Positions 498-43,078 of a DNA stretch of 64,000 nucleotides are shown piece by piece; the first letter of the stretch is position 1, and each line of letters begins with the position of its first letter. The position numbers were made by a program, and so were the translations under genes. Source of the stretch: Azolla caroliniana (Eukaryota > Plantae > Polypodiophyta); contig JBHGNT010000021.1 in the NCBI GenBank assembly GCA_043228905.1, positions 10,850,001 through 10,914,000 on the forward strand, given 5' to 3'. Under the pieces are notes generated by a model that was given only the letters and a program-made list of their open reading frames with translations, was not told the DNA's origin and ran no database searches.

Positions 498-514
498 TGA
501 TGACCACGATTCCT
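498..514 (+). promoter_or_regulatory. Element A primer-binding site (decayed, tRNA-Arg type)
   Basis: TGATGACCACGATTCCT versus TGGCGACCACGATTCCT in B and C; same 6-nt spacer after the LTR. Confidence 0.8.
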
Positions 515-5808: not shown

Positions 5809-6227
5809 TGTTACCGGCCGGCAAGGAGTCCAAAATACGGAGTGAAGGAATTAATTAAGTATGGTTGTAAGTAAGCATAGTATGGACGGACGGACTGGAA
5901 ACGGTATGCCGTTCCAGATCCGGACGGATCCCGAATAGGTGCGATAGGCACCGTTTTGTACTACGGGCCGGAAACCTATTTAAAGGCCCGGACCCCATTG
6001 TAATCGCAGCGGATAATTAATAGAGCATATGGTGTTTATACTTCTGTGTTGATTTCCGTTCTGTACTTACTGTTATATCTTACGCGTGTAATTAACAAAA
6101 GCGATCTAATCGTGTAACCTACGTAAGTCGGTGTAATCGTTGGATCTTAATCCTATGCCGTAATCACCCTTTGGTGAAGTGTTTCCGTGACACCTTGTGT
6201 TAGGCGTTGTCCGGTCAGAGAATAACA
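5809..6227 (+). repeat. Element B 5' LTR
   Basis: TGTTACCGG...AATAACA; near-identical to 15247-15665. Confidence 0.97.
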
Positions 6228-6233
6228 CAGTTT

Positions 6234-6252
6234 TGGCGACCACGATTCCTGC
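6234..6252 (+). promoter_or_regulatory. Element B primer-binding site, probably tRNA-Arg(UCG)
   Basis: TGGCGACCACGATTCCTGC, 6 nt after the LTR and identical in C. TGGCGACCAC is complementary to the recalled ..GUGGUCGCCA end of eukaryotic tRNA-Arg(UCG). Confidence 0.75.
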
Positions 6253-6280
6253 TTTCTCGCAGCGAACGACGGCTTAATGG

Positions 6281-9200
6281 ATGACGAGACCAACGCACGA
6301 CCTGGTTACAGACCGAGCTCGACGCCTCGCCGAACGGCAAAGACGACGTGAGACTTTCCAGCAAGGAGCGCACGAAATTCGCTCGGATCGTTCGTTCTCC
6401 AACGAGATCCGGAGAGTCGCGGAGGAATCTCTTCGGTTACAGCAAACTCGCGACCAGGACGACGGAAGCAGTCTAAGTAGTCTCCGGGAAACCGAACGCC
6501 TCCTCGAGGCGCTGGCAAGCGGAGAAAACGAGGCAGAAGCCTTTTCAGCCTACGAATCGGATTCCGAAGGGGGATACAACGTGCACACGAACTACCGGAG
6601 CAACAACGATACCCCCGGCGGCCCGGAGGACGACGGGTCGGAGACCGTGCCGACTCCAGAACCGGAACCGTTCGACCAGGGCTATCCGGAACCGCAAACG
6701 GAAGCCGTCAACCCACCAACACCGGAAGTGGAAGAAGCAAAGCCACCGACACCAACTAAAGAGCCGGCGAAAGTACCGGAAGAAGAGCCGGTGAAGGAAC
6801 CGGAAAAAGAACCGGAAAGATATCAACAAACGCCACTAAACCACGGCCTAATACTGGACGACGACATGCCGTTCCAATACTCAAAGTATCGCGATGATCC
6901 GGACGCGGAAGCGCATGTTCATGCCTTCGAGCAGACATGGGAAGCAAATCACACGTCCCAGCGAATGACACCGGAGGAAGAAGAACGCTCGAAGATAGCG
7001 GAATTCGGGGTCACGTTGGAAGGACCAGCGACACGATGGCGGCGGACGCAGGACCCGGCGACCATCACAACCTTTGCAGAATTAAAAGCAAAATTCTTGC
7101 ATTTTTTCCACAAGGAGGTCGACCAGATGACAATGGTGGGCCTATTTTATACGATCCAACAGGAGGCAGGGGAAAGCATTCCCCAATTCGTCATCCGTTT
7201 CCAACGAATGCATAGCCAGCTTGCCCGTGCACCCCCGGAGGAGGAATTACGGACGATATTCTTAAACGCACTCCGGGAACCATTACGCACGGTGTGCACG
7301 GTGATCGACTTTCGAGGAAGCACCATTGACCAGGTCATTGACCGGGTCAGAGAAATGGAAAAGTCAAGCTCATGGCTTACACTGGGAGCGCTGCAACGGG
7401 CGTTACCCACAGATGAAGATCTCCGGTTCCGGCAGGCAATTCAATGCACAATCTGCTTGAATGCCGGACACTCGGCAGTGGAGTGCACCATGCGAACCCA
7501 GTGTGTAATTTGTCAATCCAAGAGTCATACAACGGACCGGTGCGAGTATAACCTGCTAAACCGACAAGCACCACCCGTCCGACGGATCGAGCCAAGAAGC
7601 AACCAAGACGAAGATGAAGATCGTTGGCAAAGAATGAACCGGTACCGACCGGCACAGGATGTCCGGTACGGAGACAGACAAGAGAATGATGGCCGGTACA
7701 GGGATCGGCATGATAACTACGACCGGTATGAGCGATCGGACCGTTATCGGGAGTCCAACAGACGACACGAGCAATACGACAGAGACCATTCCCCTTGTTA
7801 CCGAAGGCACCAGGAGGACTACGGCCGATTTTACGATCCACCACGACAGGACTACCGAAATAAAAATAAGAATAATAAGAAACGTAATTTCAAGAAAGGT
7901 GGTCACCCTAGGGACCCGGAACAGGGAACCCCAAGGAGCCAACCGGCACAGAACGCACCACTCACTACGGGACCGGCTACCAGCAATGCTGAATCCAGCA
8001 ATACCCGTAAAGAGTATTGCTACTACTGCAAGCAGGAAGGCCACTACAGTAACCAGTGCCTGGCAAAGAGCTACGATAAACGACCAGCAGTTAATATGGT
8101 GGTTCCGGAAGTGGCGGATTTACAGCAAGTAACCACACGGTCGAAAGGCATGGCCAAAGAGTGGGAAACACAAGAGGCCATACGAAAACAGGCGACGGAA
8201 TGGGTGAAGGAAGCCAATGAAAGGAACGTCGCGGACGCGGAACGGCAAAAGGAGAATACCATAGGGAGTGCCGGCGGTAGCCACCCAGAAAACGAGACAT
8301 GGCAAGCACTGCAAGAATGTCAGATCACGTTGCCATTAGGGAGACTCTTGCAGCTCGTGCCGCGATTTACGGAGGGACTAAAAACGGTCATGACAGACGG
8401 TATAGTCCCACCGGCACCAGTCCTCTTCTCGAATCCGGAGGAGGGACCGACGGTGGTGGACACTAGTAGTCCGGTGATTACAGCTATTGTCAAAGGGCAC
8501 GAACTTCCCGGCACAGTAATCGATGGAGGTTCCGGGGTGAACGTAATAAGCCTCCGCACGTGTGATGCCTTGGGTATACATGAATGGGAGCCATGTCCGT
8601 TCTGGCTACGGATGGCGGATACGAGCTCTGTACGGCCGACGGGCTTAATACGGAAATTGGAAGTCACCATAGGAGGTCACAAATTTCACATCTCGGCTGT
8701 AGTGCTGCAGCTACAGGCGCAAGGCGCGTACCCACTGTTGCTGGGCAGACCATGGTTGAAAACAGCACACATCAAGCAAAATTGGCGGAAAAATATGATT
8801 ACCTTCCGGCGCGGAAAAGCCAAGGTCCAGGTACCGACACAACCACGGACGAGCAACGGTAAGGAATGCACACCGCTGTATGCGGAATGCGTGAACATGC
8901 TTGAAGGGTTGGCAGACGACGAAGAAGCCCAGTACTTGGAGGAACACCCGAAGATCGTACCACTTTTCGAGATTGACGTGGCTGAAGCCGTAGCGCCATA
9001 CTTGCCGCAGCGGGACGAAACCGAAGCCGAACCAGACAAAGATTCGATTCGGGAATTACGGCAAGCACAGGAAGCGTTGGAACGGGAAATGGCCGTTTCC
9101 CAACGGGTAAAAACATCCCAGCTTGACGAAGTAAACCTAGGAAGCAAGGACGAATCAAAGCCGGTACACATCGCCAAAGAAATGAAGCCGGAAGATAAAG

Positions 9201-12096
9201 CGGCGATGATCAAACTTCTCACGGAGTTTCGCGACGTATTCGCCTGGTCATACGAAGACATGCGAGGGCTGGACCCTCAATTATATCAGCATCAGATCCA
9301 CTTAGGCAAGAACGCGAAACCAGTGGCGCAAAAACGTTACCGAATGAACCCCAACTACGCCGCCAAAGTGAAGGAGGAAATCGACAAACTCCTAAGAGTG
9401 GGCTTCATCCGGCCGGTAAAGAAAGCGACGTGGCTGAGCCCCATCGTCGTCGTCCCAAAGAAGAACGGTAAAATCCGAGTGTGTGTAGATTACAGGAAAC
9501 TAAATGCAGCCACAATTACGGATGCATTCCCTCTTCCGTTCACGGATGGAGTACTGGATGCCGTCGCCGGCCATGAAGTCTATAGCTTTTTAGACGGGTT
9601 CAGCGGATACAATCAAATCCGGATGCACCCTGACGACCAGGAGAAGACAGCGTTCGTCACCGAATGGGGGGTGTTTGTGGCCGAAGTAATGATGTTCGGA
9701 TTAAAAACGGCACCAGCAACTTTCCAGCGAATCATCATGGAGATCCTCGGCGAATACATTCCAGCCTTCATGCAGGTGTTCTTGGATGACTTTGCAGTCT
9801 ATAGCCGGGAAAAAGACCATTTGCAGCACCTACGGTTATGCCTTGAAAAGTGTAGGTTATACCGGCTAAGCTTAAACCCAGCAAAATGCATCTTTGGGGT
9901 TTCAAGTGGAATCTTACTGGGACACATTGTAAGTAAGGAGGGCATTGCGGTCGACCCGGACAAAGTAAACGCGATACTAGGGGCACCGCCGCCGAAAACG
10001 GCCAAAGCACTAAGCCGATTCTTAGGACAGATCCGGTGGCACAGCCGGATGCTCCGTCACTTGGCTGACTTGGCTACACCATTACACACCGCGGTACATC
10101 GGACACCGTTCCAATGGACGGATACGGAGGATAAGGCGTACAATGCCCTGAAGGTACTTTTGTCGCAAGCACCCGTCGTGCAGCCTCCGGATTGGAGCAA
10201 GGAATTTCATGTGTTCGTTGACGCTTCCGACATCGCTATCGGCAGCGCCTTAATGCAACTTACGGAGCCTAAATGGTACCGGCCGGTATATTACGCCAGC
10301 CGGAAGCTGTCCCAAGCGGAGAAGAACTATTCAACGACGGAACGGGAGGCCCTGGGCATGATCTACAGTGTAACAAAGTTTCGTCATTACCTATTGGGAA
10401 GGAAGTTCTCCTTTCATGTGGATCACTCGGCGCTCCTGTACTTAGTGTCCAAGGCGTCCTTGACCGGTAAGTTGGCCCGTTGGACCTTGCTGTTGCAGGA
10501 GTTCGAATTCGAGATCTTTCACCGGCCCGGTATCCAGCATGTCGTAGCAGACTACCTGAGCCGGTTAGAGTCCGGAGAATCAGGCGATGGAGTATCGGAT
10601 GAATTCCCGGACGCAGAGTTATTCCGTATCACCCCGGAAACGGCAGCGGATGACACGGTGGCATCAGAAGATAGGTGGCTGACAAACATGCACCAGTTCC
10701 TAAGCACGGGCCTGCCACCGGAGGAAATGAACCGGGACGAGAGGAAACGACTGGCGGTGCAGAGCCGCAATTTCTGTCTGTTACGGGACACTCTCTACCA
10801 CAAAGGAGCAGATGGAATATGGAGACGGGCAGTCCGTAGTGACGAGAAACAAGTAATCTTACGGGAAGCACACTGTGGGGTTGCCGGAGGACACTATGCC
10901 GGGGAAGCGACGGCAAGGAAAGTATGGCAGAGCGGCTTATGGTGGCCCACGACGTTAAAAGACGCCGTCAAGTATGCTAAGGAATGTGACCTATGCCAAC
11001 GAATGGGCCAGCCTACGGAGCAAGCACGGATGCCACACCAACCGGTACTTCCACTAGAGCCATTCCAGAAGTGGGGGTTGGATTTTGTCGGACCGTTCAA
11101 GCCACCGGCAATGAGAACGGGTAATCGTTATGTCATCGTGGCAACGGATTATTGCACTAAATGGGTGGAGGCTAAGGCCTTGAGAGACAATACCGCGTCA
11201 TCCACAGCAAAATTCCTGTACGAGAACATTTGGTGCCGATATGGATGTCCGATTGAATTAATCAGCGACCAAGGAGGGCACTTCCTCGGCCAGGTAGTTG
11301 AAAGCTTAACAACGTTCTATGCCGTGGTCCATAAACGGAGCACACCGTACTACCCACAAGCGAACGGGTTAGCAGAGTCAACCAACAAAACGCTCCAGAA
11401 CATCCTCCGCAAAATAGTGAATGAAAACCGGACGGACTGGGATACAAAGCTCCATAGCGCGCTGTGGGCGTACCGAACGGCATACAAAACAAGTATCCGG
11501 ACAACGCCGTTCCGGTTAGCGTTCGGCTTAGAGGCGGTCATGCGGTGGAATTTCAGGTACCAAGCTTACGGATCCAACTACGGGAACGGTTGAATGAAAA
11601 GGAGTCGGAGGAAATGCGGCTAGCAGCACTATGCGAACTGGAGGAGCAACGGCTGGCCAGCATCCTACACATGGAACTGGAGCAACGATGACGGAAAGCG
11701 TTCGTTGACCGTCACCGGAAAGGTAATGAAAAGATGTTCGAAATCGGAAAGCCGGTGCTAGTATTCCAAACGAGGATGGGCAAGATGCCGGGTAAACTCC
11801 GGTTTAGATGGACATGCCCGTATTGGCTGACACGGGAATACAACGGGTCCTATCAGTTAGGGACACTTGCCGGTGAAGTGCTAGGCAAGTGGGTCAATGG
11901 ATTTAGACTAAAGCCCTATAAAGGACCGATGCCAAGTAACCCGTTTATGCAGCCCACCGGCACTATACCGGGAACCTGTCCGGGAGCGGTACGGATGGAA
12001 GAAAAAGACGACGGGGAACCCGTAGCAGAGGCGAAGGAAGACGCGGCAACCCGTAAGGAACGCGGTAAGGGTCCGAAGGGACCTACGGATGTGTAA
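6281..12096 (+). CDS. gag-pol: Element B Gag-Pol polyprotein (gag, 3 CCHC knuckles, PR, RT, RNase H, integrase); C-terminus disrupted
   Basis: CTICLNAGHSAVEC, CVICQSKSHTTDRC, CYYCKQEGHYSNQC; PR VIDGGSGVN; RT LDGFSGYNQI/FLDD; RH VDAS..NYSTTERE; INT HHCC and WGLDFVGP..SDQG..NGLAE. A 1-nt deletion at ~11543 and a TGA at 11689 break the tail, which ends at 12096. Confidence 0.95.
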
Positions 12097-12109: not shown

Positions 12110-12114
<5 letters not shown>

Positions 12115-12142: not shown

Positions 12143-12144
<2 letters not shown>

Positions 12145-12469
12145 ATTAAAAATCGAGGTATGAACGGACGTGAAAGCAAGGAGCGAAAAGGTACGTAGTG
12201 GGCATTTAAGAGCCGCCACATTGCTTAATACTAAATTGGTACACGACGTGCGCATGCTCGAAAAAGGCGCCAAGACGCACAGAGAAAAAGAAGAACGCAT
12301 GGAGACCTTTTTTTTTCGTGAGCCAAGAAGCACAGAAGCACCAAGGCAGTGGAAGCTTAGCAAACGCGAACCTGCACTCAGAGAAACCCCACGTTCGGAA
12401 CGCTCTCTCTCTCACTCTCACTCTCATCACCACTCTACCTCGCCATCTTTCCTCGACCTCGAAGCAGAC

Positions 12470-15194
12470 ATGGAACCACAAACGCTGTCGGAAGCGGCCA
12501 GGAAATGGTTCAGGCAACACGGATTGGATGGGTTCTTGACCATCATGGAGGCACCACCGCACAAAGAAGCCGACCGGGTCATCAAGGAGCTCGACACGGA
12601 AGTCATCACCGAGGAAGCGATCCGTGCGCTAACAGGCCTTCCGGAGGGAGGTATTTTTCAGATTGATAACCCAACCTCGGAGCAACTCATCCGATATTTC
12701 GGTGAGTACTCTGTAGCCGGCAAAGGCTATCGAACGCAGGGCGGCGAAGATCCGCTATTCAGGGAGATAGCTCGAGTGCTCCATGAGTACGGCCACGTGT
12801 ACCCCCGACCCCCTGTCATGCCAAAAAATCGGGGCAGGGATGATCATAGCCACCTATGAAGGGATCAAGGTGGACTGGCCGATGTTGATTGCAGACGGTT
12901 TGTGCGCGGCAATCGACATGGTACGAGGGAAGGACAGTAAGGAGGGCCGGAAGCTGTGGCATGCCGTAGCTCAGTGGATAACATTGCTCGTGCCGCCGGT
13001 CGAGACCGTTCAGCCAAAGAAGCGGCCAAGATTATCGGAAGGAAGCACTTCGAAACCCGCGTCCAAACGACAGCAGCTGCTGGCGTCAAAGGCGACGAAA
13101 GGGAAGAAACGGCTCCCAGAACCGGAGGAGGTGTCACCGGTGGGACCCGTTAAGATAACCATACGGCGACCAGGACAGAAGGAACCGGAACCCCTGAGCG
13201 CACAGAAACATGCCGTTACCCAGGAAGAGAAAACGGAGGAGCCAGAAGAGCACCTCCAACGACGGTCAAGAAGTAGGACCGCCGGGACAGAGGGGGAGCG
13301 TTCGGACCCGCAAAAGGAAGAAACGCCCCCAACTCAACCTGAGCAAACCACAAGGGAGGAACCGGAACCGGTGCGTATAGAACCGGCCTTGTCGACTTCT
13401 ATACCAGAAGTCATTCCAACGGCTCCGGAGACGGCGAGAACCGGAACTCAACAGCCGGCGAGCCCAGCCAGCACACACGGCGGCCAAGGAGTAGAACCAG
13501 AACGACAGATACAGGCACTCAGGCCAGACAATTCCACAGTGAACGAGCCGACCCGACCAGTACAGCAGCAAGGCACCAGTAGCATGTGGCTACGGTGGGT
13601 AGGCGAGCAGATCGCCGGAGCGGTCGAGTACATAGAGGCGGAGGAGAGAGCGCACCACGAACGGTTGCTCGTCACAACCGTAGATCTAGAGACGGCCCGA
13701 TCCAGAATCCGGAGCCTTGAACAAGACTTGGACAGGGTCACAAGGGAAATGGCTCAATTGGCTTTGACAACACAAGTCCAAGCACCGGTGACTCCGGGCA
13801 ATGTACAGAATAAAGCGTCAGATCAACCTGTACATAGCAATCAGACCCCGGCAACGGAAACCGTTCCGGAGAGAAATGCGGCACAAGCCCAAGAGCTTGC
13901 GGACTTAAAGGATGAGCTAGCTGCCCAAGAAGCGCTAAGGAGCCGCGAAAGAGAGTTGAAGACGGCAGCGGAGGCAGAACTCAAAAAGACTGCTGAGAAT
14001 CTACGCCGGGCCGAGGAGAGCTTACGAAAAGGCCACCAAGCGTACGACCGGCTCAAGGAGGATAAGGAGAAAATGCTGCAAGAGAAGGACAGGCTCCGGA
14101 GAAACGCCGAAACAGAAGTAGAGCGCCTGAAAGAGGAACTCCGGCAGCTAAAGGAACGGGAGGACCGGAACCATCGCCAGATCAACGGCAAGCTCAAACA
14201 AAAAACGGAGGAATTTGAGCACTTGCACCGGGAGTATAAACGGTTGCAAACGGAGCACAAGGAATGGACGGATGAGCTCCGGCAAGTAGTTGATCGGACC
14301 GCAACGGCATACGCTAAGGAACAAGCGGAAACCAGAAGACGGTTGGAAGAGGCGGAGAAGGTTCGGACAGAGCTCCTCAGGCAACAGCAGGTGGAAAAAG
14401 AAAGAGCGGCGGAGGTACTGCAGAGGCTGCAGACAACATATCAAGGGCAGCTGACGCGCTACAGAGAGCAGGCGGAGGATACGGCGAATCTCATCAAGCA
14501 GTTGAAGGAGGAACGACAAGTTGTGGAAAGTAGAGCGCAAATGGGAGCAAGTCGCATCCAGGATATCATGCGGGCCTGGTTGAACCAGACCAAGAGCTTG
14601 ATTGACAACGGTTCCGTCAAATGGTGGACCAAGTGGGCCACGAACGCGGCGGAACTCCAATTGCTCCGGGCCGACGTAGAGAACCGGCGGAAGGAGGGAG
14701 ATGATTGCTATATGCTGACTTCCGAAGACTTCACCGGTATAAGAGATGAGCTGGCCGAAGACTTTCAAGCCTTGGCAGAGGACCAACTAGGGCAAGTCCG
14801 GCAACTTGTAGCTCAGCTGGATGACGACAGGCTGGAGGCGCAGATCCAGTTTGAAAGCTACGAGAGGTCCCGGATCCGGGAACAGAAAGCACGAGAACCG
14901 GTTACGGTCAACCTCAGTGATGAGGAACCGTTACTGGAAGGAGACCGGACCGGAAGCAGTCAAACGGAGATGCCGGAGTCAGAGAAACAAACGGAGCAGC
15001 CGCCTATAGAGCAGCCGGAGCAGTCTCAGTCCCAACCGCAACCACAGCAGCAGCAGCAAGCAGAGCAGCCGGAGCAGCCTCAGTCCCAACCGCAACCACA
15101 GCAGCAGCAGCAAGCACAACCGCAACAACCACAACCGGAAGAACAAGTGGAAACTCTGGAACAAAGTATTTTGGACAATTTGGGTGAACAATGA
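12470..15194 (+). CDS. Element B ORF2 (~900 aa): conserved N-terminal domain, Pro/Glu linker, long coiled coil, Gln/Glu tail; one frameshift at ~12830
   Basis: MEPQTLSEAARKWFRQHGLDGFL..YFGEYS..KGYRTQGG..MPKNR|AGMIIATYEGIKVDW; homologues in A, C, G and H. Confidence 0.88.
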
Positions 15195-15206
15195 AGGGGC
15201 CGAGAA

Positions 15207-15246
15207 GGGTTCGACGTACAAGGTACTGTCCCACGGGCGTGCCATG
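15207..15246 (+). other. tRNA-Arg 3'-end-like motif (inverted PBS) at the PPT position of B
   Basis: GGGTTCGA CGTACAAGGTACTGT CCCACGGGCGTGCCA TG, then the LTR; no purine tract adjoins the LTR. Confidence 0.85.
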
Positions 15247-15665
15247 TGTTACCGGCCGGCAAGGAGTCCAAAATACGGAGTGAAGGAATTAATTAAGTAT
15301 GGTTGTAAGTAAGCATAGTATGGACGGACGGACTGGAAACGGTATGCCGTTCCAGATCCGAACGGATCCCGAATAGGTGCGATAGGCACCGTTTTGTACT
15401 ACGGGCCGGAAACCTATTTAAAGGCCCGGACCCCATTGTAATCGCAGCGGATAATTAATAGAGCATATGGTGTTTATACTTCTGTGTTGATTTCCGTTCT
15501 GTACTTACTGTTATATCTTACGCGTGTAATTAACAAAAGCGATCTAATCGTGTAACCTACATAAGTCGGTGTAATCGTTGGATCTTAATCCTATGCCGTA
15601 ATCACCCTTTGGTGAAGTGTTTCCGTGACACCTTGTGTTAGGCCTTGTCCGGTCAGAGAATAACA
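15247..15665 (+). repeat. Element B 3' LTR
   Basis: Matches 5809-6227; followed by TSD CCTAT. Confidence 0.97.
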
Positions 15666-18689: not shown

Positions 18690-19069
18690 TGTTGTCTGTC
18701 TGGCCGGACTAGCCTCAACACAGGTGTCTACCCGACACTTCTCCAAAGGGGTGGTAAGGATTGGATGCTAGGTTACACGCATAAGATAATTATAATTAAG
18801 CACGGACGGCAAAAAATACGAGATACAGATAAATACACAATGATTACTATTGTATTACTTCCGTCGAAACACTTTACAAATCATCGGATCCTTTTATAGG
18901 CATCCGGCAAGGTTACAATCGGTGCGCTTAGGCAACCGACATCCGAATCGGTTCGGATCCGGATCGGTACAACTGTACCGAATCCGTCCCTCCGAATAAT
19001 AATTCTACTATTACTTCCTATTATCCGATCCGCCTTCCCACTTGTCCTTGCTCTTCTAACCGGCCAACA
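18690..19069 (-). repeat. Element C 3' LTR
   Basis: Matches 28361-28740. Confidence 0.97.
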
Positions 19070-19112
19070 CATGGCACGCCCGTGGGAAAGTGCCTTGCAC
19101 TTCGAATCCACA
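19070..19112 (-). other. tRNA-Arg 3'-end-like motif (inverted PBS) at the PPT position of C
   Basis: Minus strand GTGGATTCGA AGTGCAAGGCACTTT CCCACGGGCGTGCCA TG, then the LTR. Confidence 0.85.
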
Positions 19113-19119
19113 CCTGGCT

Positions 19120-22023
19120 TCAGTCTTCCTCCAAAATATCGAGCACACTTTGCTCGATAGTGTCAAGTGGTGCTTCTTCCTCCTGTTCCTGTTCCTTGCC
19201 TGCCTGGTCTCCGACCTCCTGTTGGGTAGGCTGTTCCGTAAAAATTTTCTGCTCCGGCTCTACTTGATTCCGTGGTGCCGGTGCTTCCTCACCGCTTCGT
19301 CCGGGTTCTTCCTGTTCTCCCTCCGTTCCTGGCTCTGTTCTGTTACCGGTGTCGCTTTCTCCGGTCTCGACTGGTCGACTTGATATGCCTCCTTCCTCTG
19401 CTCTGGTGTCTTCCGGTCTCAGCTCTTCTTCTTCTCCGGCATCGGTCCGCTCCTGCTCTTCTTCGAGTTCGTCTTCAGGTATTCTTTGTCGGGGTTGTTC
19501 GGTGTCGGTTGGTTCATCTTCATCCGGTCGTGTTCCCTCACCAATAGTGGTTGGCGTCGTTCTTCCCTTAGCTTCCTGTCGTACCCGGTCCTGCTCGTAT
19601 CTCTCCAACTCCAACTGAGTTGCGAGCTGCCCGTCATCCAACCTCTCTACCAACCCTCGGATTTCTTTGAGGTGTTCTTCTGCTAAAGTGTAGAAATCCT
19701 CCGACAATTCCTCCCGAATGGCGACGATACTTTCTTCATCCATCTTGTAGAACCTGTCGCCGGTCTTCTTCCGATTCTCGGCATCCGCTCGGAGTGTCTG
19801 CAGCTCGGCTGCCTGTTGTGACCACTCCTTCCATAGCTTTTCCGTACTTTCGTTGATACTTGCCTGAGCTCGGGTACTCCATCCTGACATGATGAGCTTG
19901 ATCCGGTCAACTCCTGACTTAGCATGCACATAAGCTTCCTGCTTTTCCTTCCTTGCCCGTTTTGTAATGTTGGCCATTATCCGAGCCTGGGCCTCGTAAT
20001 CTGCTTTCTGCTTTTCATAGGTACTCTGCAGTTTGCTGATCGTGAAGGTCGATTTTTCCTTTTCTTCATTCCTGATCTTGGTCAGGTCCAGCTTTTCCTG
20101 CCTTAGCGCCTCTAATTCCTTCCTTCCCTCCGTTGCTTGGGCTATTTCCGCCGACAATGCTTCCTTGTTGGCACTGACCTCATCCATCGCCTTAGCCAGG
20201 TCTAATCGGGTCTCCTTGAGCTGCTCTTTCAGCTTCTCTATTTGCCGGTCATAGTCTGCTGCTCGTTTTTTGTTGTCCGACTCGGCCTGCTTGTGATCTC
20301 TGTAGAGACGGTCGAAGTCCTCCGTCTTCTGCTTCAGGCGTCGGGTTGCCTGAGCTCTTAACCGATCGTCCCGGTCCTTCTGTTGTCGGAGTTCTTCCTG
20401 CAGTCGTTCTATCTCTTGTTCAGCATGTCGACGTAGTCGGTGCTTCTCCTTCTGCAGCTTCTCTTTTTCTTCTTGCAGTCGGTCATTAGCGGCTCGACCT
20501 TTCCGGAGGCCTTCTTCCATTTTTCGTCTGTCATCCTCCACCGCTTTCCGCTGCTCCCTTTCTCTTTCCCTTAATGCCTCCTGAGCTTGTAACTCCTCTC
20601 GTAAGGTTTCTATTATTTTTTCGGTCTCAGGGCCGGTTTGCAAGGCTACCGGTTCTGGTTCTGGTTCTGGTTGCTTCCTTGTTGTCCCGACCGGCTCGGT
20701 GACAGCTTGTGCTTGTTGGATTCCTTCCCTTGCCTGCAACAGCTCCCCTTGCATTTCCTCGATCCGTGTTCGGAGCGCGACCAACTCCTGCGTTGTTGTA
20801 TGCGTCAGCTGTTGCCGACACGTTTCTTCTTTCTCTAACTGGTCCGCTACTCCCGATAACTGCTCCGAAAGCCATCTCAGCCATTGCGGCTTTGTTCTTC
20901 CGATTTCGGGGTGGCCTTGCTCACTTAAGCCAGGCTGATTTTCCGGCCTCTTCTCTGGCTCTGGCTCCAGCGCTCGTTCCTTCTTCTTCTCTGGGATGAC
21001 CGGTTTTCTGAAGTCCGGCCCAACCGGTGTCGGTGCTGCTTCCCTGGGTACAGGTTCCGGTGCTATTTCCGCCTCGGCTACTGGAGATGGTCCTTGCGCC
21101 CTCTGTTGAGTTCTGTCCACTGGTGGAGCCGGTCCTTTCGCCCGTTTCTCCCGACCTTGTCTTGCTGGGAGTCTTACCAGTGGTTCGGATGAGTCTTCTG
21201 TTTCAGTTTCCTCCTCCGGTGCGGGTACCAGACGAACCTTTTGTCTAGAGACCTCTGGTTCCGGTTCCGGCCGTCGCAGCGTTATATGGATTGGTTTGCG
21301 CACTACCGGTTCCTCCTCAGCCGCTTTCCCTTTGCCTTTACCTGCCGGTTTTGCCTTTGTGGCCGGTTCCTGTTGCTGTCGTGATGGTCCTTCCCCCTAC
21401 TGTTCTGCTTCTTGCGGGGTCCATCCGGGGGTGTGTTTCTCCAAGATCTGTCGGCGCTTTGTGACCTGTTTCGGCGTCGTCTCCTGCCGACCTCTTTTCT
21501 TTTGTGTGATGGGGAGTACCGATGGGACTAACACCGTTAGCCATTGTGCTATCCCGGCCCATGGCCTTTTTCCTTCCACCAGATTTTTGATGGCCTCCTT
21601 CAATCCTTCGGTTATGAAATGGAGCCAGTCTATTTGTAAGCCCTCGTACGCTGCTATCAAGAATGCTGCCCGATACTTGGCTATGGCTGGGGGACGGGGA
21701 TTCACGAATCCGTATTCCATCATAGCGCGGGCTACTTCTCCGAACAGCAGGTTCTCTCCGCCCTACATTCGGTTCGCCTTGCTGCTGATAGAGTATTCCC
21801 CGAAATATTCGAACAGGATTTCACTCGAAGGGTTTTCGATTGTTTGCAGTCCTCCTGCTTTGATCCCCGTGATTGCCTGCACCGCTCCTTCCGTGACTTC
21901 TGATATATCGATCGATGTTGCCGCCTGCTCTGGTTCTGCGTGTGGTGGAGCGTCGGCGATCCGCAACAAGCCTTTTAACCCGTTCTCCCTCATCCATTGG
22001 CGTGCCTCTTCCGACAGTACCAT
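19120..22023 (-). pseudogene. Element C ORF2 (~968 codons, coiled coil) with two in-frame TAG stops
   Basis: ORF pieces 21763-22254, 21397-21723 and 19120-21303 share one frame; MVLSEEARQWMRENGLKGLL..YFGEYS..AYEGLQIDW. Confidence 0.88.
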
Positions 22024-22392
22024 TGCTTCGAATTCTTCGTCTGCTGCCTGGTGTTCGGGATCGCGCTGTGTGTGCTCTGTGCGTCGGGTCGCTCTTCTGT
22101 GCTTCTTCGCCTGTATGTAGGAAAATTCGTAAAACGTGAGCCCTTCGTAGGCGTCCTTTTTCGTTTCCCGCGCATGTTCCTCTCCCGCCATAATTAGTAT
22201 GTCCTTTCTTGTTTGCTGCGTGTGAGTGCCCACGTTCTCTGCTTTAAATAGCAAGTGCGCACACGTCCTTCTTTAATGCATGGCGCCTCTTCGTTGCATG
22301 GTGGCGCTCCCACCTCTTGTGATCTCCCCATCATTACGATGATTCGCGTCGATTCTGCCCACGTCTTTTTTTTTTCTTTTGCTTGGACCACG

Positions 22393-25300
22393 TCATTTGC
22401 TGGTCCCCCCCGCTTTGTTCGGGTCGGTTCGGGTCGGTTCGTGTCGGTTTTCCGGGATGGTCCTCGTCAGTATCGGTGTCGGTTCTTCCTCGGTCCGAAT
22501 GTCTTCAGCAGCGTCTGTCGGTGTCGGTTCTTCCTCGGTCCGGATTTCCGGGTTTCGCTTGAACGGGTTGGCTGGCATATTTCCTTTATACGGCTTTAGC
22601 CGAAATCCGTTTGCCCACTTGCCGATGACAACTCTAGACAACGTGCCGAGCTGATATGACCCATTGTACTCCTCGGTGATCCAGAACGGTCCGGTCCATC
22701 GAAACCGCAACTTTCCCGGCATGTTCCCCATCCTTGTCTGGAATAGTAGCACCGGTTTCCCGACTTCGAACTCCTTTTCATTGCCACGCCGGTGTCGGTC
22801 CACGAAGGCTTTTCTCCTCCTTTGCTCCAGTTCGAGTTGTAGTAAGCTGGCTATTCGGTTTTCCTCTAATTCCAACAGCGTTGCCAGTCGGATTCGTTCG
22901 GACTCGTTCTCACTTAAGCGCTCCTTTACCTAAATCCGTAAGCTGGGGATCTGGAACTCTACCGGCATGACCGCTTCTAACCCGAATGCTAGTTGGAACG
23001 GGGTTGTCCGGATGCTGGTTTTGTACGTTGTTCGGTACGCCCATAGCGCGCTTTGCAATTTCGTATCCCAGTCGGTCCGGTTCTCGTTGACGATTTTTCG
23101 TAGGATGTTCTGCAGAGTTTTGTTCGTTGATTCCGCTAGTCCATTGGCTTGAGGGTAGTAGGGTGTACTCTTTTTATGTACCACCGCGTAAAATGACGTC
23201 AGGCTTTCTACTACCTGCCCGAGAAAATGCCCTCCTTGGTCACTTATAAGCTCGATCGGGCAACCATACCGGCACCATATGCACTCGTACAGGAACTTTG
23301 CCGTGGACGCGGCCGTGTTGTCCTGTAAGGCCTTTGCTTCTACCCATTTGGTGCAATAGTCGGTTGCCACTATGACATACCGATTTCCGGTTCGCATTGC
23401 CGGTGGCTTGAAGGGACCGACAAAGTCCAAACCCCACTTTTGAAACGGTTCCAAGGGCAAGACCGGGTGGTGTGGCATCCGGGCCTGCTCTGTGGGTTGG
23501 CCCAGTCGTTGACACAAATCGCATTCTCTGCTATACTTCACGACATCTTTTAGGGTGGTCGGCCACCACAGTCCGCTCTGCCATATTTTCCGAGCGGTTG
23601 CGTCGCCGGCATAATGCCCGCCGGCAATTCCACAGTGGGCTTCCCTGAGGATTAGATCCTTCTCATCGCTCCGCACTGCTCGCCTCCAGATGCCATCTGC
23701 CCCCTTGTGATAGAGGGTGTCTCCAACCAAGCAGAAATGTCTACTTCTTACTGCTACCCTTTTCCTTTCATCGCGGTCCATGTTGTCCGGGGGAACTCCG
23801 GTGCTCAGGAACTGGTGCATCTCAGTTAGCCATGTGTCTTCGTCGGCTACCGTTGTATCCGTTGCCGGTTTCGTCGTGATCCGGAACAATTCGGCGTCGG
23901 GAAACTCATCCTGGATGCCGTCCCCTGCTTCTCCGGATTCAAGTTTGCTTAGATAGTCCGCTACCGCATGCTACGCCCCGGGTCGGTGGAAAATGTCGAA
24001 TTCAAATTCCTGTAGTAGCAGTGTCCACCGTGCAATTTTTCCCGTCAGGGATGCCTTCGAGACCAGGTAGAGTAGTGCCGAATGGTCGACATGGAAGGAA
24101 AACTTCCTTCCGAGCAGATAGTGCCTGTACTTTGTGACACTATACACCATTCCCAATGCCTCGCGTTCCGTCGTAGAGTAATTCCGTTCGGCTTTTGAGA
24201 GTTTCCGGCTTGCGTAGTACACTGGTCGGTACCATTTTGGCTCTGTGAGTTGCATCAGAACGTTGCCGATTGCTACGTCCGACGCGTCGACGAAGACGTG
24301 AAAGCTTTTACTCCAATCCGGCGGTTGCACCACCGGAGCTTGCGACAACATGACCTTCAACGCTTTGTAGGCTTCCTCCTCCGTCTCTGCCCATAGGAAG
24401 GGTACCCTATGTATGGCGGTATGTAACGGTGTAGCGAAGTCCGCGAGGTGCCGTATCATCCGGCTATGCCACCTTATTTGGCCCAGGAACCGGCTTAAAG
24501 CCTTTGCGTTACTTGGTGCTGGTGCATCGAGAATCGCCTTGACTTTATCCGGATCTACCACGATTCCTTCCTTACTCACCACGTGCCCTAGCAAGTTGCC
24601 GCTTGCCACTCCAAAGACGCACTTGGCCGGATTCAGGCTCAATCGGTACTCGCGGCACTTCTCCAAGCACAGCCGGAGGTGATCGAGATGCTCTCCGTGC
24701 CGGCTGTAGACCGCGAAATCGTCAAGGAAGACTTGCATAAAACCGGGGATATATTCCCCGAAAATTTCCATTATTATCCTTTGAAAGGTCGCTGGAGCCG
24801 TCTTTAGTCCGAACATCATCACGACCGCGACGAACACTCCCCATTCCGTCACGAACGCTGTCTTCTCTTGGTCGGCCGGGTTCATTCGTATTTGGTTGTA
24901 GCCGCTAAATCCATCCAGGAAGCTGTAAACTTCGTGCCCGGCTACCGCATCTAACACCCCGTCCGTAAATGGTAGTGGAAACGCATCGGTCACTGTCGCG
25001 GCATTTAGTTTTCGGTAGTCCACGCATACCCGGATTTTTCCGTTCTTTTTCGGGACCACCACTATCGAACTTAGCCAAGTTGCCTGCTTGACCAGTCGGA
25101 TAAATCCGACCCGGAGGAGCTTATCAATTTCCTCCTTCACCTTTGCCGCATAATTCGGATTCATCCGGTACCTGCGTTGAGCAATCGGTTTCGCGTCCGT
25201 ACTTATGTGAATTTGGTGCTGATAGAGCTGGGGGTCCAGCCCTCGCATGTCTTCGTACGACCACGCGAACACATCCTTGAAGTCTGTTAACAATGCTACC

Positions 25301-28300
25301 ATTGCCTTCTTTTCTTCCTTCGGCAATTCCTTTGCAACATTTACTGGTCGGGGCTTGTCTTCTGTGCCGAGGTCCACCTCCTCGAGTTGGGATGCTTTTA
25401 CCCTCTGGGATATCGTCATTTCCCTCTCTAGGGATTCCTGCGCTTGTCGTAGTTCCCGTATCGCCGCTTGGTCCGGTTCTTCCGGCGTCGTAATGTACGG
25501 TTCTACTGCCGCCGTAATATCCACCTCAAATAGTGGGACGATTCGTGGGTGTTCCTCTAGGTACCGCTCGACTTCCTCGTCCGGTAATCCCTCCAACATG
25601 TTAATGCTTTCCGCATATAATGGAGTTGCTTCCTTACTGGTGATCACCCGTGGTTGCGTCGTTACTCGTACCTTTGTTTTCCCTCGCCGGAATGTGATCA
25701 TGTTCTTTTGCCAGTTCTGCTTGATATGCGCCGTTCGCAGCCATGGTCGTCCTAGCAGTAGGGGGTACGCGCCTTGTACATTTAGCTGCAGCACCACGGC
25801 CGATATCCGGAATACGTGGCCTCCGATCGTGATTTCCAAATCCCGGATAAGCCCGATCGGTCGGACTGAGCTAGTATCCGCCATGCGTAACCAGAAGGGG
25901 CATGGTTCCCATTCCCGGATGCCCAGGTCGTTGCATGTCTGTTGGCTGATGACATTTACCCCGGAGCCTCCGTCAATAATCGTTCCAGCAATTTCCTTTC
26001 CTTTGACGATTGTTGTGATTGCCGGGCTACTTGTATCGACCACCGTCGGTCCTTCCTCCGGGTTGGAGAAGAATGCCGGTGCTGGCGTCGGCTTCGGTTT
26101 GCTGACGGATGCCTGTAGGTCTGCCGTAAATCGTGGCACTAACTGTAGTAGTCGTGCTAACGGCAGCACGATTTGACAGTCCTGTAGCGCTTGCCACGTC
26201 GGGTTCTCGCCTGGCTGTATGATTTCTTCGTCTTTTGGCATATTTTGGTCTCTTACTTCTGCCGCATTCTGTTCATTGGCCTCCTTGATCCATTGTGTCG
26301 CTTGTTTTCTGATTGCCTCCTGGGCCTCCCACTCGGCGGTCTTTCCCTTTGACCGGGTTGTGACCTGCTGTACTTCTGTTATTTCGGCTGTAACCATGTT
26401 GACTTCCGGCTGCTTGTCATAGCTTTTGCTTGGGCATTGGTTACTATAGTGGCCTTCCTTGCGGCAGTAATAACAGTACACCTTGTGACTGTTGCTCGTT
26501 TCTCCTTTGTCCCCGGTTTGGAGGGTGGGTATGCTCCGGTGGTCGTCTTCGGTTTTTCAGTTATCCCGTACGGATACCGGGTTGTCATTCCTTGCTGCCT
26601 CCCGACGTTCCTCTCTTCGGAAAAATCCACGCTTCTGATTCCGTCGGAAATTTCGGTTCCCTTGTCGCCTCTCTTCTCCGCGTCGGTCGTATTCCGGGGC
26701 TCCGTCTCGGTCGTACCGGTCCCGGGGGTAGCTTTCTTTGCGTCTCTCCTCTCGGTCATAGTTGTCGCGTCTTCTATCAGCGTATCCTTGTCGCCTCTCT
26801 TCTCCGCGTCTGTCGTCTTCTGGGGATTCGTCTCTGTCATACCGGTCCCGGGGGTAGCTATCTCTGCGTCTCTCCTCTCGGTCATAGTTGTCGCGTCTTC
26901 TATCAGCGTATCTATTACCGCGTTCGCGTTGGTAGCGGTCGTCTCTCCGGAATCGATCCTCGTCCGGGTTTTGATTGCGCGGTTCTATGTGTCGAACCGG
27001 TGCTGCCTGCCGATTTAACAGGTTGTATTCGCATCGGTCCGTTGTATGGGCTCGAGAGTTGCAGATCACACATTGTGTCCGTAGGGTGCAGTCTACTGTT
27101 GAGTGCCCCGAATTTAGGCATGTTGTACATTGTAAGGCCTGTCGGAACCTCAGGTCTTCCTCTTTTGGGAGTGCCCGGTGTAACATCCCCATCGACAAGA
27201 AGGGGCTAGTCTTGTCCATTTCTAAAACCCGATCAATAACTTGGTCCATTGTGCTGGTTTGGAAATCAAGGACTCCGCACATTGTTCGAAGTGGCTCTTT
27301 CAGTGCGGACAGAAAGACTGCTTTGGCTTCGTCTTCGGGTGGTGCTCTTGTCAGTTGGCTATGCAGGGTCTGGAACCGAATGATGAATTGTGGCATAGTC
27401 TCGTTTTCTTCCTGCCGGGTGGTGTAGAACTGCCCGACCAATTCCCTTTGCTCAAATTGTCTGTGAAAAAACCTGAGGAATCTGGCCTTCCAGGCATTGA
27501 ATGTGGCAAAGGTGCCTGGTAAGTGCTTTGCATGCCATTGGGCCGCCGGTCCTTCTAAGGTTATGCCGAATTCGGCGATTTTGGATCGTTCGGCTTCGGG
27601 CTCCGTCAGTCTTTGGGAGATATGGTTGGCTTCCCATGTTTGGAGGAATGCGTACACGTGTGCCTCCGCGTCGGCCTCATCCCGGTACTTTGGGTATGGG
27701 TACGGCATCGTGTCGTCCAACTGGCTCTCTTGTTCCCTATCCGCTGTTGGCGTTGGTGTGCGAACCTTTGGTTCCTCCGCGGGTGTTGCCGGTGTCCGGT
27801 CCGTTGGTTCCTCTGCGGGTGTTGTCGGTATCCGCTCCTTCGGTTCCCTCGCGGTTGTTGTCGGTATCCGGTCAGCCTTCCTCGGCGGTTGCCGGTCACC
27901 GAATTCCAGGGTTATTTCTTCCTCTGGCGCCGGTGTTACTGAGTCTTCCGACCCCTCGTCCTCCCGGTCGTTTGGTGTGTCGTGGCTGCTTTTATACCGG
28001 GATGCAACGCTTCCGTCGCTTTCCGACTCCGCCTCAAGTGTTGCGAATGCTTCCGAGTCCCCGTCGCCCGCGGCGAGCGTCTGCAGTATCGTTTCCGCCT
28101 CTTGCAGGCTTGTTATGCTACTGCCTTCGTCGGGGATTTGCAGAACCCGGAACTGTAGTGCTTCTTCTGCGACTCTCCGAAGAGTTTTGGAGAATGACCG
28201 ATCCCGCCGGATCTCGTCGACGGCTTGCTGCAGGGCTTCCCGTCGTTGCTCGCGTTCGGTGTATCGTCTCCCTCGTTCGGTGATGTGGTCGTCGTTTGGT

Positions 28301-28308
28301 CTAGACAT
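22393..28308 (-). pseudogene. gag-pol: Element C gag-pol with premature stops (26557, 23971, 22930) and a frameshift near 26481
   Basis: Same domain motifs as B (IIDGGSGVN, FLDD, VDAS, WGLDFVGP). Confidence 0.95.
26660..26911 (-). repeat. 126-bp in-frame tandem duplication in the R/D/Y-rich gag segment of C
   Basis: YADRRRDNYDREERR..DRRGEERRQG, 42 aa, twice. Confidence 0.9.
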
Positions 28309-28335
28309 CCATCCCCCGGTTGTCCTCTGCACTTT

Positions 28336-28354
28336 GCAGGAATCGTGGTCGCCA
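28336..28354 (-). promoter_or_regulatory. Element C primer-binding site
   Basis: TGGCGACCACGATTCCTGC, 6 nt from the LTR; identical to B. Confidence 0.8.
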
Positions 28355-28360
28355 AAATAG

Positions 28361-28740
28361 TGTTGTCTGTCTGGCCGGACTAGCCTCAACACAGGTGTCT
28401 ACCCGACACTTCTCCAAAGGGGTGGTAAGGATTGGATGCTAGGTTACACGCATAAGATAATTATAATTAAGCACGGACGGCAAACAATACGAGATACAGA
28501 TAAATACACAATGATTACTATTGTATTACTTCCGTCGAAACACTTTACAAATCATCGGATCCTTTTATAGGCATCCGGCAAGGTTACAATCGGTGCGCTT
28601 AGGCAACCGACATCCGAATTGGTTCGGATCCGGATCGGTACAACTGTACCGAATCCGTCCCTCCGAATAATAATTCTACTATTACTTCCTATTATCCGAT
28701 CCACCTTCCCACTTGTCCTTGCTCTTCTGACCGGCCAACA
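28361..28740 (-). repeat. Element C 5' LTR
   Basis: Matches 18690-19069. Confidence 0.97.
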
Positions 28741-40302: not shown

Positions 40303-42571
40303 ACGCCATCAAGCCGAAGAAGTGGACTTGGCTGGAAACTACACCAAATAAGGCATCCAAATGACAGCAACTCCCAACCCCGGATGGACAGCAGGGGAAT
40401 CATCTCAGTAGGAAGGACAAACAACCTTGGAACAAGAGTCGGTGGAGCCAGTTCTGTAGCAAACCAATCAAAATCAAGCTGCGCCGGCAGAACACGGACA
40501 TGGACATGGATGACCTGGTCCGGAGGATGAACCAAGAAACCGCGGAGGAAGAGGTTGAAGATAAACTAGCTAAGGCCCTTCGACATTGCCCAAAGAAGTA
40601 CAACACAGAGCAGCAAGGGGAAGGATCAGGCCTGGAGCAGGCTAGTAATCCGAAGACCCACTCAATGGAGGTAGAACCCAAGATGAAAGAAGAGCCGGTA
40701 ATAAGACCAGAAGCGGTGACAACGGTTCAACAAGAACCCGCTATAGAGGAACTTATCCCACCGGGTCTTGAAACGCAGCAACACAAGGAACGCCGTCCAG
40801 AGTGAACACTAGAACCACTGACCCAATGGCTTAGGAAGGAGCACAAACCAAGACTGGAGCCAGGGCAGTAGTTTGTTGTCCTAACATAACAAGGAACATG
40901 CCACCAATGGTTAAAGTGGTTCGGAGAGCAAGTATCCGGTGTGGCCGACCGAATGGAGGACGAGCAATAGGAAGTACAAAGCCAGGTGGAACGGTTGCTA
41001 GCCACAACCAAAGAATTAGAGAAGCCAGGGGCACAAATCCGGAGCTTGGAGGAAGAGTTGAAAAGGGCCAAGGAATACGCGGTCATCATGGCTAACATGG
41101 GTCAACAAAGTGTAGTAACGGCCACCGACTAATCTACAAAAGGAAGCTCTGGAAATGGATGCGCAACCAGTGGTTAGTACAACCCCAAAAAAAGATGCTG
41201 AGCGAGAACAGGAAATGTTAACCTTAAGGGAGGAATTAATTGCTCAAGAAGCATTGCGAGAGAGAGAGAGAGAGAGAACGCAAAAGCAGACAACAGAAGA
41301 AGAGAAGTGGAGAATAGAAGAAAATATCTCAAAAAGTCACGCAAACAACAACCGGCTAAAGGAGGAAAGAGAAAAACTGATGCGAGAGAAGGAGAATGGT
41401 GGAGACAGATATAGAGCGGTTGAAAGAAGAAATCTGGCAGTAGAAGGAAAGAGAGGATCGAGCGCGCTCCCACATAAACCGTCGGCTAAAGCAGAAAACA
41501 GAGGATTTTGAAAAGTTGCACTGAGACCACAAGCAACTAGATGCCGAACATAAGAAGCTTGGGTCAGAAATTGGCCGACAGCAAGAAAATTTGAAAGAAA
41601 TATGGAGGGAACTGGCCAAGAACACGGAGGCGCTAGTGGATGAACAAACCAAGATGCTTGCTACTGCGAAGGCACTCGTAGAAGCGGCAAAGGCAAAAAT
41701 GGAGCTAAACAAAAAGCACTATGAAGAAGTAGAACGAGCAAAAATGGCTTTGGATAGGGTCCAAACAACCTACCAAACCCAGTTGGTGAACTATGAAGTG
41801 CAGGCTCAAGCTATCACCGCCCTCATTAAGAAGCTGAAGGAGGACAAGCAAGTTGCGGAGGACAAGACAAAGCTCAGAGTGGGCAATATCCGGGCAATGG
41901 TGAACGCATGGAAAGACTGGACAAAGAAGAATATCGACGACAACTCGGTGCGCTGGTGGACTGAATGGTCGCAACAAGCGGCGGAATTAGAGGTATTTTG
42001 ATTAGATGCAGAAAACCGAAAGAAGGCCGGTGACAATTTTTACAAGATGGATGAAGAAAGTATTGTCACCATCCGAGAGGAGTTGGTAGATGACTTCTTT
42101 TCCTTGGCAAAAAGTATTGTCAACTTGAACCTATCCAGAGGCTGATGGAAAGACTTGATGATGATCAGGTCAGAACACAACTTCAATTTGAGCAATTTGA
42201 ATGGGAACGTCAATGGTTGGAAGCAGAAAAAGGAACGACGGCTATAAAAATAAGTGATGAGGAGCAGATTGTGTAACTACAACTGCAACAGGAGGAGCTG
42301 CCAAATAAAGTTGAAGGTAAACAACCAAGGGGAGCTGGTGGGGACGAGAACAAAGTGACCGGGTCGGAGCAGCAAGCAGGTACCGGAAATAGAGAGAATG
42401 CCGAAACTGGCACAAGAACGGAGATGCCTTAGACGGAAGAAGCTGGGGAGCAACAATAGGCGAAACAAGGGCAACAACAACCAGAAGAGTATCAGCAGAA
42501 TGAAGAACCACTCGAACCCCTAGACCAAAGCATATTCGACATACCCGACGAGGATTTACGAAGCTACCCTA

Positions 42572-42612
42572 TGGGTTTGACATACAAGGCACATTCCCAC
42601 GGGCGTGCCATG
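42572..42612 (+). other. tRNA-Arg 3'-end-like motif (inverted PBS) at the PPT position of A
   Basis: TGGGTTTGA CATACAAGGCACATT CCCACGGGCGTGCCA TG, then the LTR. Confidence 0.85.
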
Positions 42613-43078
42613 TGTTGGCCGGTGGCCGTAGTATGAAAGACAAGTGGGGGATGAGTCGGAAGAGGAAATTAAGTTATTAGTATTTGTCATTAATTAGCTA
42701 GAATTAAAATAGGAATGGACAGATCTTGAAGAGTTGCACCAATTTGGATCGGGACCGATTCATCACCGGTTGCCGATATGGCCCTGTTTTGTAAACAAAA
42801 CCAGATGCCTATAAAAGGATCTGAAGAATGATGTATTAATGGACAGAATTAATATAAGTAAAGTTGGCTTTAAGATTATTGTGCATCTACTTACTTTCCG
42901 TTCTATGCTTACGATCGATCATATCTTACACGTGTAATGAACTTGTGTAAGTTGTTAATCCGGAACCAGTCGGATAAAGTGATATCTGTGTCGGAAGCAT
43001 AAAACTGTAACCACCCCTTTGGTGAAGTGATCCAGAAGGACACCCTGTGTTAGTGGCAAGTCCAACCCAGGATTAACA
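42613..43078 (+). repeat. Element A 3' LTR
   Basis: Homologous to 12-491; followed by TSD ATTTA. Confidence 0.92.

Follow-up and report, generated by a model that had tools for sequence, protein, structure and literature searches.

A tRNA-Arg-like motif with a covarying hairpin takes the place of the polypurine tract in Ty3/gypsy retrotransposons of Azolla caroliniana

Introduction

What primes the second DNA strand of an LTR retrotransposon when the sequence before its 3' LTR is a partial copy of a tRNA? LTR retrotransposons and retroviruses are generally taken to prime their plus strand from a polypurine tract (PPT). The question is raised by three related Ty3/gypsy elements (A, B, and C) of Azolla caroliniana, which lie in a 64,000-nt stretch of one contig that was analysed as a whole and is called the window below. 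A sequence-only reading of the window noticed that their pre-LTR motif resembles the 3' half of a tRNA with a hairpin inserted in the T-loop. It proposed that this RNA structure is under selection and that the element may encode its own tRNA mimic, which would serve as a plus-strand primer or as a docking site for reverse transcriptase (RT). Here, we examine the motif in the three elements and in related metagenomic copies, and we weigh the host tRNA, the element's own RNA, and other explanations for it.

Results

Elements that carry the motif

The window is a nest of plant LTR retrotransposons, and the motif was found in three of them (Table 1). The LTRs of all three elements end in TG...CA, and each element is flanked by a 5-bp target duplication. 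The Pfam matches in the Ty3/gypsy elements follow the order gag, RT, RNase H, and integrase, and the protease gave no Pfam match. The acidic residues of RNase H are visible in the translated gag-pol. In Pfam, the gag-pol of element B matched neither a chromodomain nor an archaeal-type or second RNase H, and the gap between RNase H and the integrase zinc finger is approximately 110 aa. Judged from this domain content, the elements do not belong to the Tat clade because the additional archaeal-type RNase H is absent. In a quick tree of RT-RNase H sequences (102 rows, with 18 near-identical angiosperm-type rows excluded and without reference sequences for the Athila, Phygy, or Selgy lineages), elements B and C clustered with liverwort and fern proteins (Riccia, Marchantia, and Adiantum), apart from the angiosperm clade. 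The elements are Ty3/gypsy by every tested feature but the PPT.

An extra ORF region of approximately 1000 aa (12164-15194 in B and 22035-19120 in C) has a long coiled-coil-like part and is conserved in the clade at approximately 27-60% identity. The 758-aa frame of this region in element C had no match in a Pfam search, and the part tested against the ESM Atlas had none there.

The target duplication CCTAT is common to B (5804-5808/15666-15670) and C (28745-28741/18689-18685), and their flanks are unrelated. The duplication of A is ATTTA, and seven other LTR-end junctions in the metagenomic loci show different 5-mers; the coincidence between B and C is probably due to chance. Three further decayed or cut clade members lie at 31879-34150, 43078-45507, and 56397-62371, none with an intact 3' LTR junction in the window. 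A nested Ty3/gypsy element of a second type (SH3_Tf2 domain, minus strand) and a Ty1/copia element (minus strand) were found at 45962-49077 and 51456-54988. An array of a 41-nt tandem repeat (16821-17428) lies between B and C, and the left flank of B has a similar sequence.

Table 1. Coordinates of the elements, their parts, and the motif copies in the window
Feature	Positions	Strand	Remarks
Element A	12-43078	+	oldest of the three; LTRs 84% identical
5' LTR of element A	12-491	+	
Decayed minus-strand primer binding site (PBS) of element A	498..507	+	
Decayed motif copy of element A	42571..42612	+	stem with two A.C mismatches
3' LTR of element A	42613..43078	+	
Element B	5809-15665	+	LTRs 99.3% identical
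5' LTR of element B	5809..6227	+	
Minus-strand PBS of element B	6234..6243	+	10 nt matching tRNA-Arg(UCG)
gag-pol of element B	6278..11593	+	single open frame, 1771 aa
Extra forward ORFs of element B	12164..15194	+	231 and 807 aa in overlapping frames; no Pfam matches
Motif copy of element B	15205..15246	+	stem GTAC/GTAC
3' LTR of element B	15247..15665	+	
Element C	28740-18690	-	LTRs 98.7% identical
5' LTR of element C	28361..28740	-	
Minus-strand PBS of element C	28345..28354	-	10 nt matching tRNA-Arg(UCG), 6 nt after LTR
gag-pol of element C	22930..28398	-	gag, zinc knuckle, RT, RNase H, integrase; interrupted by two stops
Extra forward ORF region of element C	19120..22035	-	coiled-coil-like; stop 8 nt before motif
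Motif of element C, tRNA-Arg(UCU)-like 3' half with hairpin insert	19070..19112	-	at PPT position
T-stem 5' strand copy GTGGA	19107..19111	-	tRNA 49-53; one G>A here
T-loop copy TTCGA	19102..19106	-	tRNA 54-58
15-nt segment	19101-19087	-	
Covarying hairpin, 4 bp with 3-nt loop	19090..19100	-	within 13-nt insert, tRNA positions 58/59
Tail CCCACGGGCGTGCCA	19072..19086	-	T-stem 3' strand, acceptor 3' strand (position 66 missing), and CCA; window + strand reads as PBS
2-nt spacer from CCA to LTR	19070..19071	-	TG; 3' LTR follows from 19069
3' LTR of element C	18690..19069	-	TG...CA

The PPT position and the primer binding sites

No PPT was found before the 3' LTR in A, B, or C, and purines make up 8 of the 15 nt before the LTR in both B and C. 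The LTR starts exactly 2 nt after the CCA in all 93 copies, and the spacer itself is variable (TG, GG, AG, TT, TA, CG, or AA). The start of the LTR marks the 3' end of the plus-strand primer; therefore, the primer should end in CCA, and it should be either a host tRNA or RNA of the element.

On the opposite strand, the motif reads as an LTR end, 2 nt, and TGG, which is a textbook PBS. It could accordingly be asked whether the elements are inverted, so that the motif is an ordinary PBS and the genomic RNA is antisense to gag-pol; the REM1 element of Chlamydomonas has an inverted layout. However, a second PBS in the forward orientation follows the 5' LTR in A, B, and C and in loci of both PBS types, the 5' LTR end bears no purine tract on either reading, and TATA-like sequence is located on the coding strand of the LTRs. 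We consider inversion to be scarcely credible.

The forward PBS is not the same in all relatives. A sister non-autonomous family has an ordinary PBS that is the complement of the same last 10 nt as the motif copies (Arg(UCU)), located 2 nt after the 5' LTR. In the window elements, the Arg(UCG)-type PBS is separated from the 5' LTR by a spacer of 6 nt (6228-6233, 28360-28355, and 492-497), which is 7 nt in several loci and ends in a run of T; the corresponding distance is 2 nt at the other end of the element and in the sister family. In one locus (L061:1901, oriented), two mismatches after the Arg(UCG)-type PBS are followed by TGGGA, so that the tRNA match, lost beyond 10 nt in most copies, is regained. 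In the sister family (L008, L022, L029, L051, L055, L079, L080, and L014), an 8-mer in U5, approximately 60-76 nt before the PBS, is complementary to the tRNA T arm. It occurs with at most one mismatch in 8 of 11 PBS rows, which as one family amount to one event, and it was absent in all five Arg(UCG)-type rows tested. This 8-mer resembles the U5 contact of Rous sarcoma virus (RSV). Six loci (L004, L008, L011, L022, L051, and L080) contain non-autonomous elements, 2.2-2.6 kb long, that carry the motif together with an Arg(UCU) PBS and are repeated head to tail with LTRs in common; these are either tandem arrays or the product of assembly collapse.

The motif as a copy of tRNA-Arg

The motif corresponds to tRNA positions 48-76, with 13 nt inserted between positions 58 and 59 and with base 66 missing. 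The order seen by the sequence-only reading (T-arm-like sequence, 15 nt, CCCAC tail, and CCA) is the same in A, B, and C, and its hairpins in the three copies were found as described. In the window, the 15-mer CCCACGGGCGTGCCA occurs exactly 3 times, and 6 times when up to 3 mismatches are allowed, against a mean of 1.19 in shuffled sequence. When the insert is left out, the motif agrees with plant tRNA-Arg(UCU) at 27 of the last 28 nt. A search of prokaryote and phage collections with this insert-free pattern, in which one base after CCCAC was left free, gave 15 matches, all of them tRNA-Arg genes. In the supplementary rows of PMC8662596, the 3' 28 nt of angiosperm nuclear tRNA-Arg(UCU) are identical to those of the insert-free motif except at base 66, and no reference tRNA in those rows has the one-base-short form of the element. 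Thus, the suggestion that removal of 13 nt leaves a near-tRNA holds for the 3' half of tRNA-Arg, with the reservation that it is still one base short and that the 5' strand of the T-stem is eroded in all three window copies (AAGGG, ATGGG, and GTGGA).

Among 65 distinct rows, T is retained at tRNA position 48 in 46 and at position 47 in 41. The largest clade, which includes element C, mismatches G59 of the tRNA. The clade of element B has an extra base (A) between the T-stem and T-loop copies, which would bulge in a duplex with the tRNA and adds a pair to the internal stem.

tRNA-like structures, such as those at the 3' ends of plant viral RNAs and mascRNA, have an acceptor stem and either end the RNA or are cut out of it. 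The motif shares with them the T-arm-like sequence and the CCA end; however, it has neither an acceptor 5' strand nor base 66, and it is located inside the transcript. No strict partner for the acceptor 3' strand was found in B or C; when wobble was tolerated, just 12 of 89 copies had a partner within 130 nt, at scattered positions. As a tRNA-like structure, the motif therefore fails at the acceptor stem, where a conserved 5' strand and base 66 are missing. The T-stem is 83% paired in a 60-row alignment, in which its 3' side was fixed by the query and its loop is interrupted by 13-14 nt. The sense RNA folded no better than shuffled sequences (z-scores of -0.55, +0.36, and -1.40). ARAGORN predicted no tRNA over the window, and none in any of the 60 loci on which it was run out of the 84 metagenomic loci described below, and a search of 14900-19400 against Rfam gave nothing relevant or tRNA-like.

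Conservation of the hairpin and the insert length

Metagenomic contigs were scanned with a pattern in which TTCGA, the 15-nt tail, and TGT were fixed and the insert was free at 10-22 nt. This gave 85 matches on 84 loci, 83 of which came from one assembly series and are not independent hosts. Because the query fixed TTCGA, the tail, and TGT, their conservation in the loci reflects choice by the query, and covariation of the T-stem is invisible for the same reason. To form a set of 91 copies, one locus (L056) and two contig-edge copies were dropped, and four further copies from the same contigs and the three window copies were added.

Although 10-22 nt were allowed, the insert segment is 15 nt long in 83 of the 91 copies and 16 nt in the other 8. 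The 4-bp stem is entirely Watson-Crick in 77 copies, with the versions GTGC/GCAC (57 copies), GTAC/GTAC (15), GGGC/GCCC (3), and AGGC/GCCT (2). The loop is AAG in 53 copies, AAT in 25, AAA in 8, CACG in 3, and TTA in 2; the hairpin of the earlier reading was consequently retained, while the AAG loop that it took as fixed was not. Shuffled 15-mers contain a comparable 4-bp hairpin approximately 5-6% of the time, so that the hairpin in any one copy is weak evidence; the family data are clear.

In a 60-row MAFFT alignment (three 16-nt rows of which are misregistered), changes on both sides were found at four of the five inner pairs, amounting to 40 cells. None of 500 shuffles reached this value, and registers slid along the alignment gave at most 6 cells. 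The number of double-changed pairs by itself was not above the shuffles (125 of 500). In the RNAalifold consensus, which leaves out the T-stem, the hairpin is bulged, and G57 and A58 are paired with C61 and T60 as well. On a tree of the extra ORF, which covers 51 of 87 copies, GTAC/GTAC, GGGC/GCCC, and an A...T base pair fall on different branches; the AGGC/GCCT copies are absent from this tree because their contigs contain no ORF. GGGC/GCCC and AGGC/GCCT were not seen in the window and are thus out-of-sample confirmations, with a crude chance of approximately 1 in 1300. A double change at the pair that forms the hairpin base occurred once, on the branch leading to the clade of C, and can alternatively be explained by a shift of pairing. 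Taken together, the data show that the hairpin exists and is under selection. The covariation predicted by the sequence-only reading is therefore present, as double changes at four pairs on different branches, and the constraint that it expected on the insert length was also observed.

A separate line of evidence does not depend on the motif query. The contigs of all four runs (four organism labels) pile up on 15204-15254. In each run, 51-84 contigs begin to match at 15207, many leave at 15250-15253, and both flanks are unlike. Since the matches begin and leave around the motif, it is an island common to otherwise unlike families. In all contigs with ORFs, the extra ORF is followed by the motif and then the LTR, and several contigs continue with a PBS and gag.

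The encoded CCA shows an origin from a mature tRNA. Therefore, the motif might be a relic, namely a reverse-transcribed tRNA end captured by accident, with plus-strand priming being sloppy or located elsewhere. This explanation is very improbable and is largely refuted by the covariation; the compensatory changes at four pairs and the constant length speak against it. The motif is also retained across families that differ in their LTRs and have an extra ORF only approximately 27-60% identical, it follows all 54 ORF ends found in the loci (which were chosen by the motif), and young copies have precise LTR ends and target duplications.

Several other candidates were discarded. The dropped locus L056, with a 19-nt insert and neither ORF nor hairpin context, scored 28.9 under the covariance model, compared with at least 50.9 in full copies, and is likely a chance match. 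A match in a viral contig (L001) lies inside a phage ORF and is due to chance, and relatives of the pol region were not found in the viral contigs. A search of the window and 87 loci with the covariance model detected no additional diverged copies. An alternative fold suggested by the folds of A and B, in which the insert pairs with the CCA/LTR junction, is 87% paired; it showed no covariation above shuffles (179 of 500) and is broken in the GGGC/GCCC and AGGC/GCCT versions.

The strand on which the motif acts

The covariation cannot decide the strand because a Watson-Crick hairpin forms on both. Hence, it supports the earlier proposal with respect to selection on the hairpin, and it cannot place the hairpin in the RNA. 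Folding energies of the RNA and DNA hairpins on either strand did not separate the models. Among the one-sided changes at the level of lineages, four fit a G.T wobble on the minus strand or with the tRNA, and one (L033 and L049) is compatible with G.U pairing in the RNA but not with pairing on the minus strand. This 4:1 lean towards the minus strand is not significant (p of approximately 0.19); the background of G>A (0.314) and C>T (0.313) is symmetric.

The RNA of the window elements is identical to the tRNA; therefore, only the minus strand can bind it, and two segments complementary to the 3' end and the T arm of the tRNA are indeed present on the minus strand. We cofolded the last 30 nt of tRNA-Arg with the minus strand. 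Pairing on both sides of the looped-out hairpin was obtained in 7 of the 7 copies listed, and the real insert was better than most of 200 shuffles in 5 of them (2-25 shuffles were as good), the exceptions being two decayed copies. This calculation is approximate, with RNA energies used for the DNA strand and a non-host tRNA-Arg (L093, whose 3' 28 nt are the same as those of the plant tRNA).

On balance, with a probability of roughly 0.55, we favour the reading that the motif is a two-part site on minus-strand DNA for a second host tRNA-Arg, which would prime the plus strand by means of a predicted three-way junction. This reading is also favoured by the sister family, in which the complement of the same 10 nt serves as an ordinary PBS, and by the T retained at tRNA positions 48 and 47 in most distinct rows. 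RNase H would clear the genomic RNA, and Gag/NC would anneal the tRNA. Its last 16-17 nt are predicted to pair with the LTR-proximal part, with base 66 bulged, and the 5' half of its T arm with the distal 10 nt, while the hairpin would be looped out as the third arm of the junction. RT would then extend from the CCA through the 2-nt spacer into U3, and the spacer would be trimmed later by integrase. Points against the host-tRNA reading are that a tRNA on DNA is a substrate of RNase H, that the largest clade mismatches G59, and that the extra base of the B clade would bulge in the tRNA duplex. The least certain steps address the first of these points: the bulge and the hairpin, which is inserted at tRNA position 58/59, where m1A58 is unable to pair, may split the RNA/DNA hybrid into short pieces, and the fixed distance of approximately 17 nt from the primer end may keep RT polymerising and protect the primer from RNase H. 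The idea of an RT docking site survives inside this host-tRNA model.

The primer could instead be the element's own RNA, with a T-arm-like stem and an extruded hairpin, cut by RNase H at the CCA and used as a PPT would be. RT would pause at the hairpin or recognise it, and RNase H would cut approximately 16 nt behind; the tail of the sister family could also prime the minus strand through its PBS, to which it is complementary. A T-loop is possible only on the RNA strand, and both the hairpin and the insert length are conserved, as this route would have it. The hairpin base is 16-17 nt from the CCA end, near the spacing between polymerase and RNase H (approximately 13 bp in Ty3). An RNA stem is consistent with the single G.U change at the level of lineages and with the extra A in the B clade, and it could be extended by the pyrimidines at positions 47-48. 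However, the missing acceptor 5' strand, the incompletely paired T-stem outside the RNAalifold consensus, the ordinary folding of the sense RNA, and the ARAGORN and Rfam results all speak against a tRNA-like RNA, and the tail of the window family does not pair with its own PBS, which is of the Arg-UCG type. Moreover, an RNA primer left from the element pairs with the minus strand whatever its sequence, and identity to a host tRNA would not be needed. Priming by the element's own RNA thus appears doubtful. The self-encoded tRNA mimic of the sequence-only reading is less supported than the host tRNA on the same grounds, and the fuller proposal, in which a mimic tail cut at the CCA primes the plus strand and in the sister family the minus strand as well, seems marginally less probable still.

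A third possibility divides the motif, so that the tail is a tRNA site or primer and the hairpin and the T-arm copy serve another step. Candidates for this step are hiding the site until the minus strand is done, RNA dimerisation or packaging, strand transfer, and disruption of a Pol III B-box, from which the insert removes the C expected after the T-loop. When no tRNA is bound, a bulged hairpin of 7 bp can form on either strand, with part of the site buried in it. The single double change at the hairpin base, with its other possible readings, leaves room for such a role, and the abstract of PMC1635307 describes the second tRNA site of Drosophila Gypsy as dispensable for cDNA synthesis. By itself, however, a mixed role leaves unaccounted for the exact tRNA register of the T-arm copy across the insert and the near-fixed length, and we regard it as unlikely.

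Discussion

The elements can be compared with several known systems. According to the sections of PMC6317226 available, the plant non-chromovirus Ty3/gypsy elements (Athila, Tat, Phygy, and Selgy) share with them the TG...CA LTRs, the 5-bp duplication, a tRNA-Arg PBS, the order gag-RT-RNase H-integrase, and an extra ORF after pol. Unlike these relatives, the window elements have no PPT and carry a tRNA copy with a hairpin instead. In the same sections, Neumann et al. (2019) describe three types of minus-strand primer and a PPT for the plus strand, and no such replacement is described there. A literature search, with most subscription papers outside its reach, returned no description of tRNA-primed or mimic-primed plus strands or of the motif.

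The closest parallel in form is the split PBS of Ty1, which consists of a 10-nt PBS with Box 0 and Box 1 (partial texts of PMC3592414 and PMC5371799). As in the host-tRNA reading, two segments of the template hold the tRNA, with a short spacer looped out between them. However, the Ty1 site is on genomic RNA and primes the minus strand, whereas the motif is assigned to the minus strand at the position of the PPT, and its two parts are separated by a hairpin whose pairs covary. The PAS of HIV-1 and the U5-T-arm contact of RSV likewise add to the PBS a short stretch of template that is complementary to the T arm; in the portion of PMC3185550 covered, these contacts serve minus-strand initiation on RNA, larger structures lie between the two contacts, and the plus strand starts from a PPT. 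Second tRNA-related sites near the 3' LTR are reported for Ty3 and Drosophila Gypsy. In contrast to the motif, these sites are complementary to the tRNA in the RNA, and they coexist with a PPT, as shown for Ty3 (PMC5371799 and PMC1635307, both in part).

An abundant clade with young copies has a structured tRNA-type site in place of a PPT. Either of the two leading models, a host tRNA on minus-strand DNA or a primer cut from the element's own RNA, would amount to a different route to the second strand. This clade can be overlooked or read in the wrong orientation by annotation tools that require a PPT or that rely on the PBS to orient elements. The selected hairpin at a fixed distance from the primer end makes the question of priming directly testable, and the covarying hairpin offers a precise 45-nt handle on how RT tells a primer from a substrate of RNase H.
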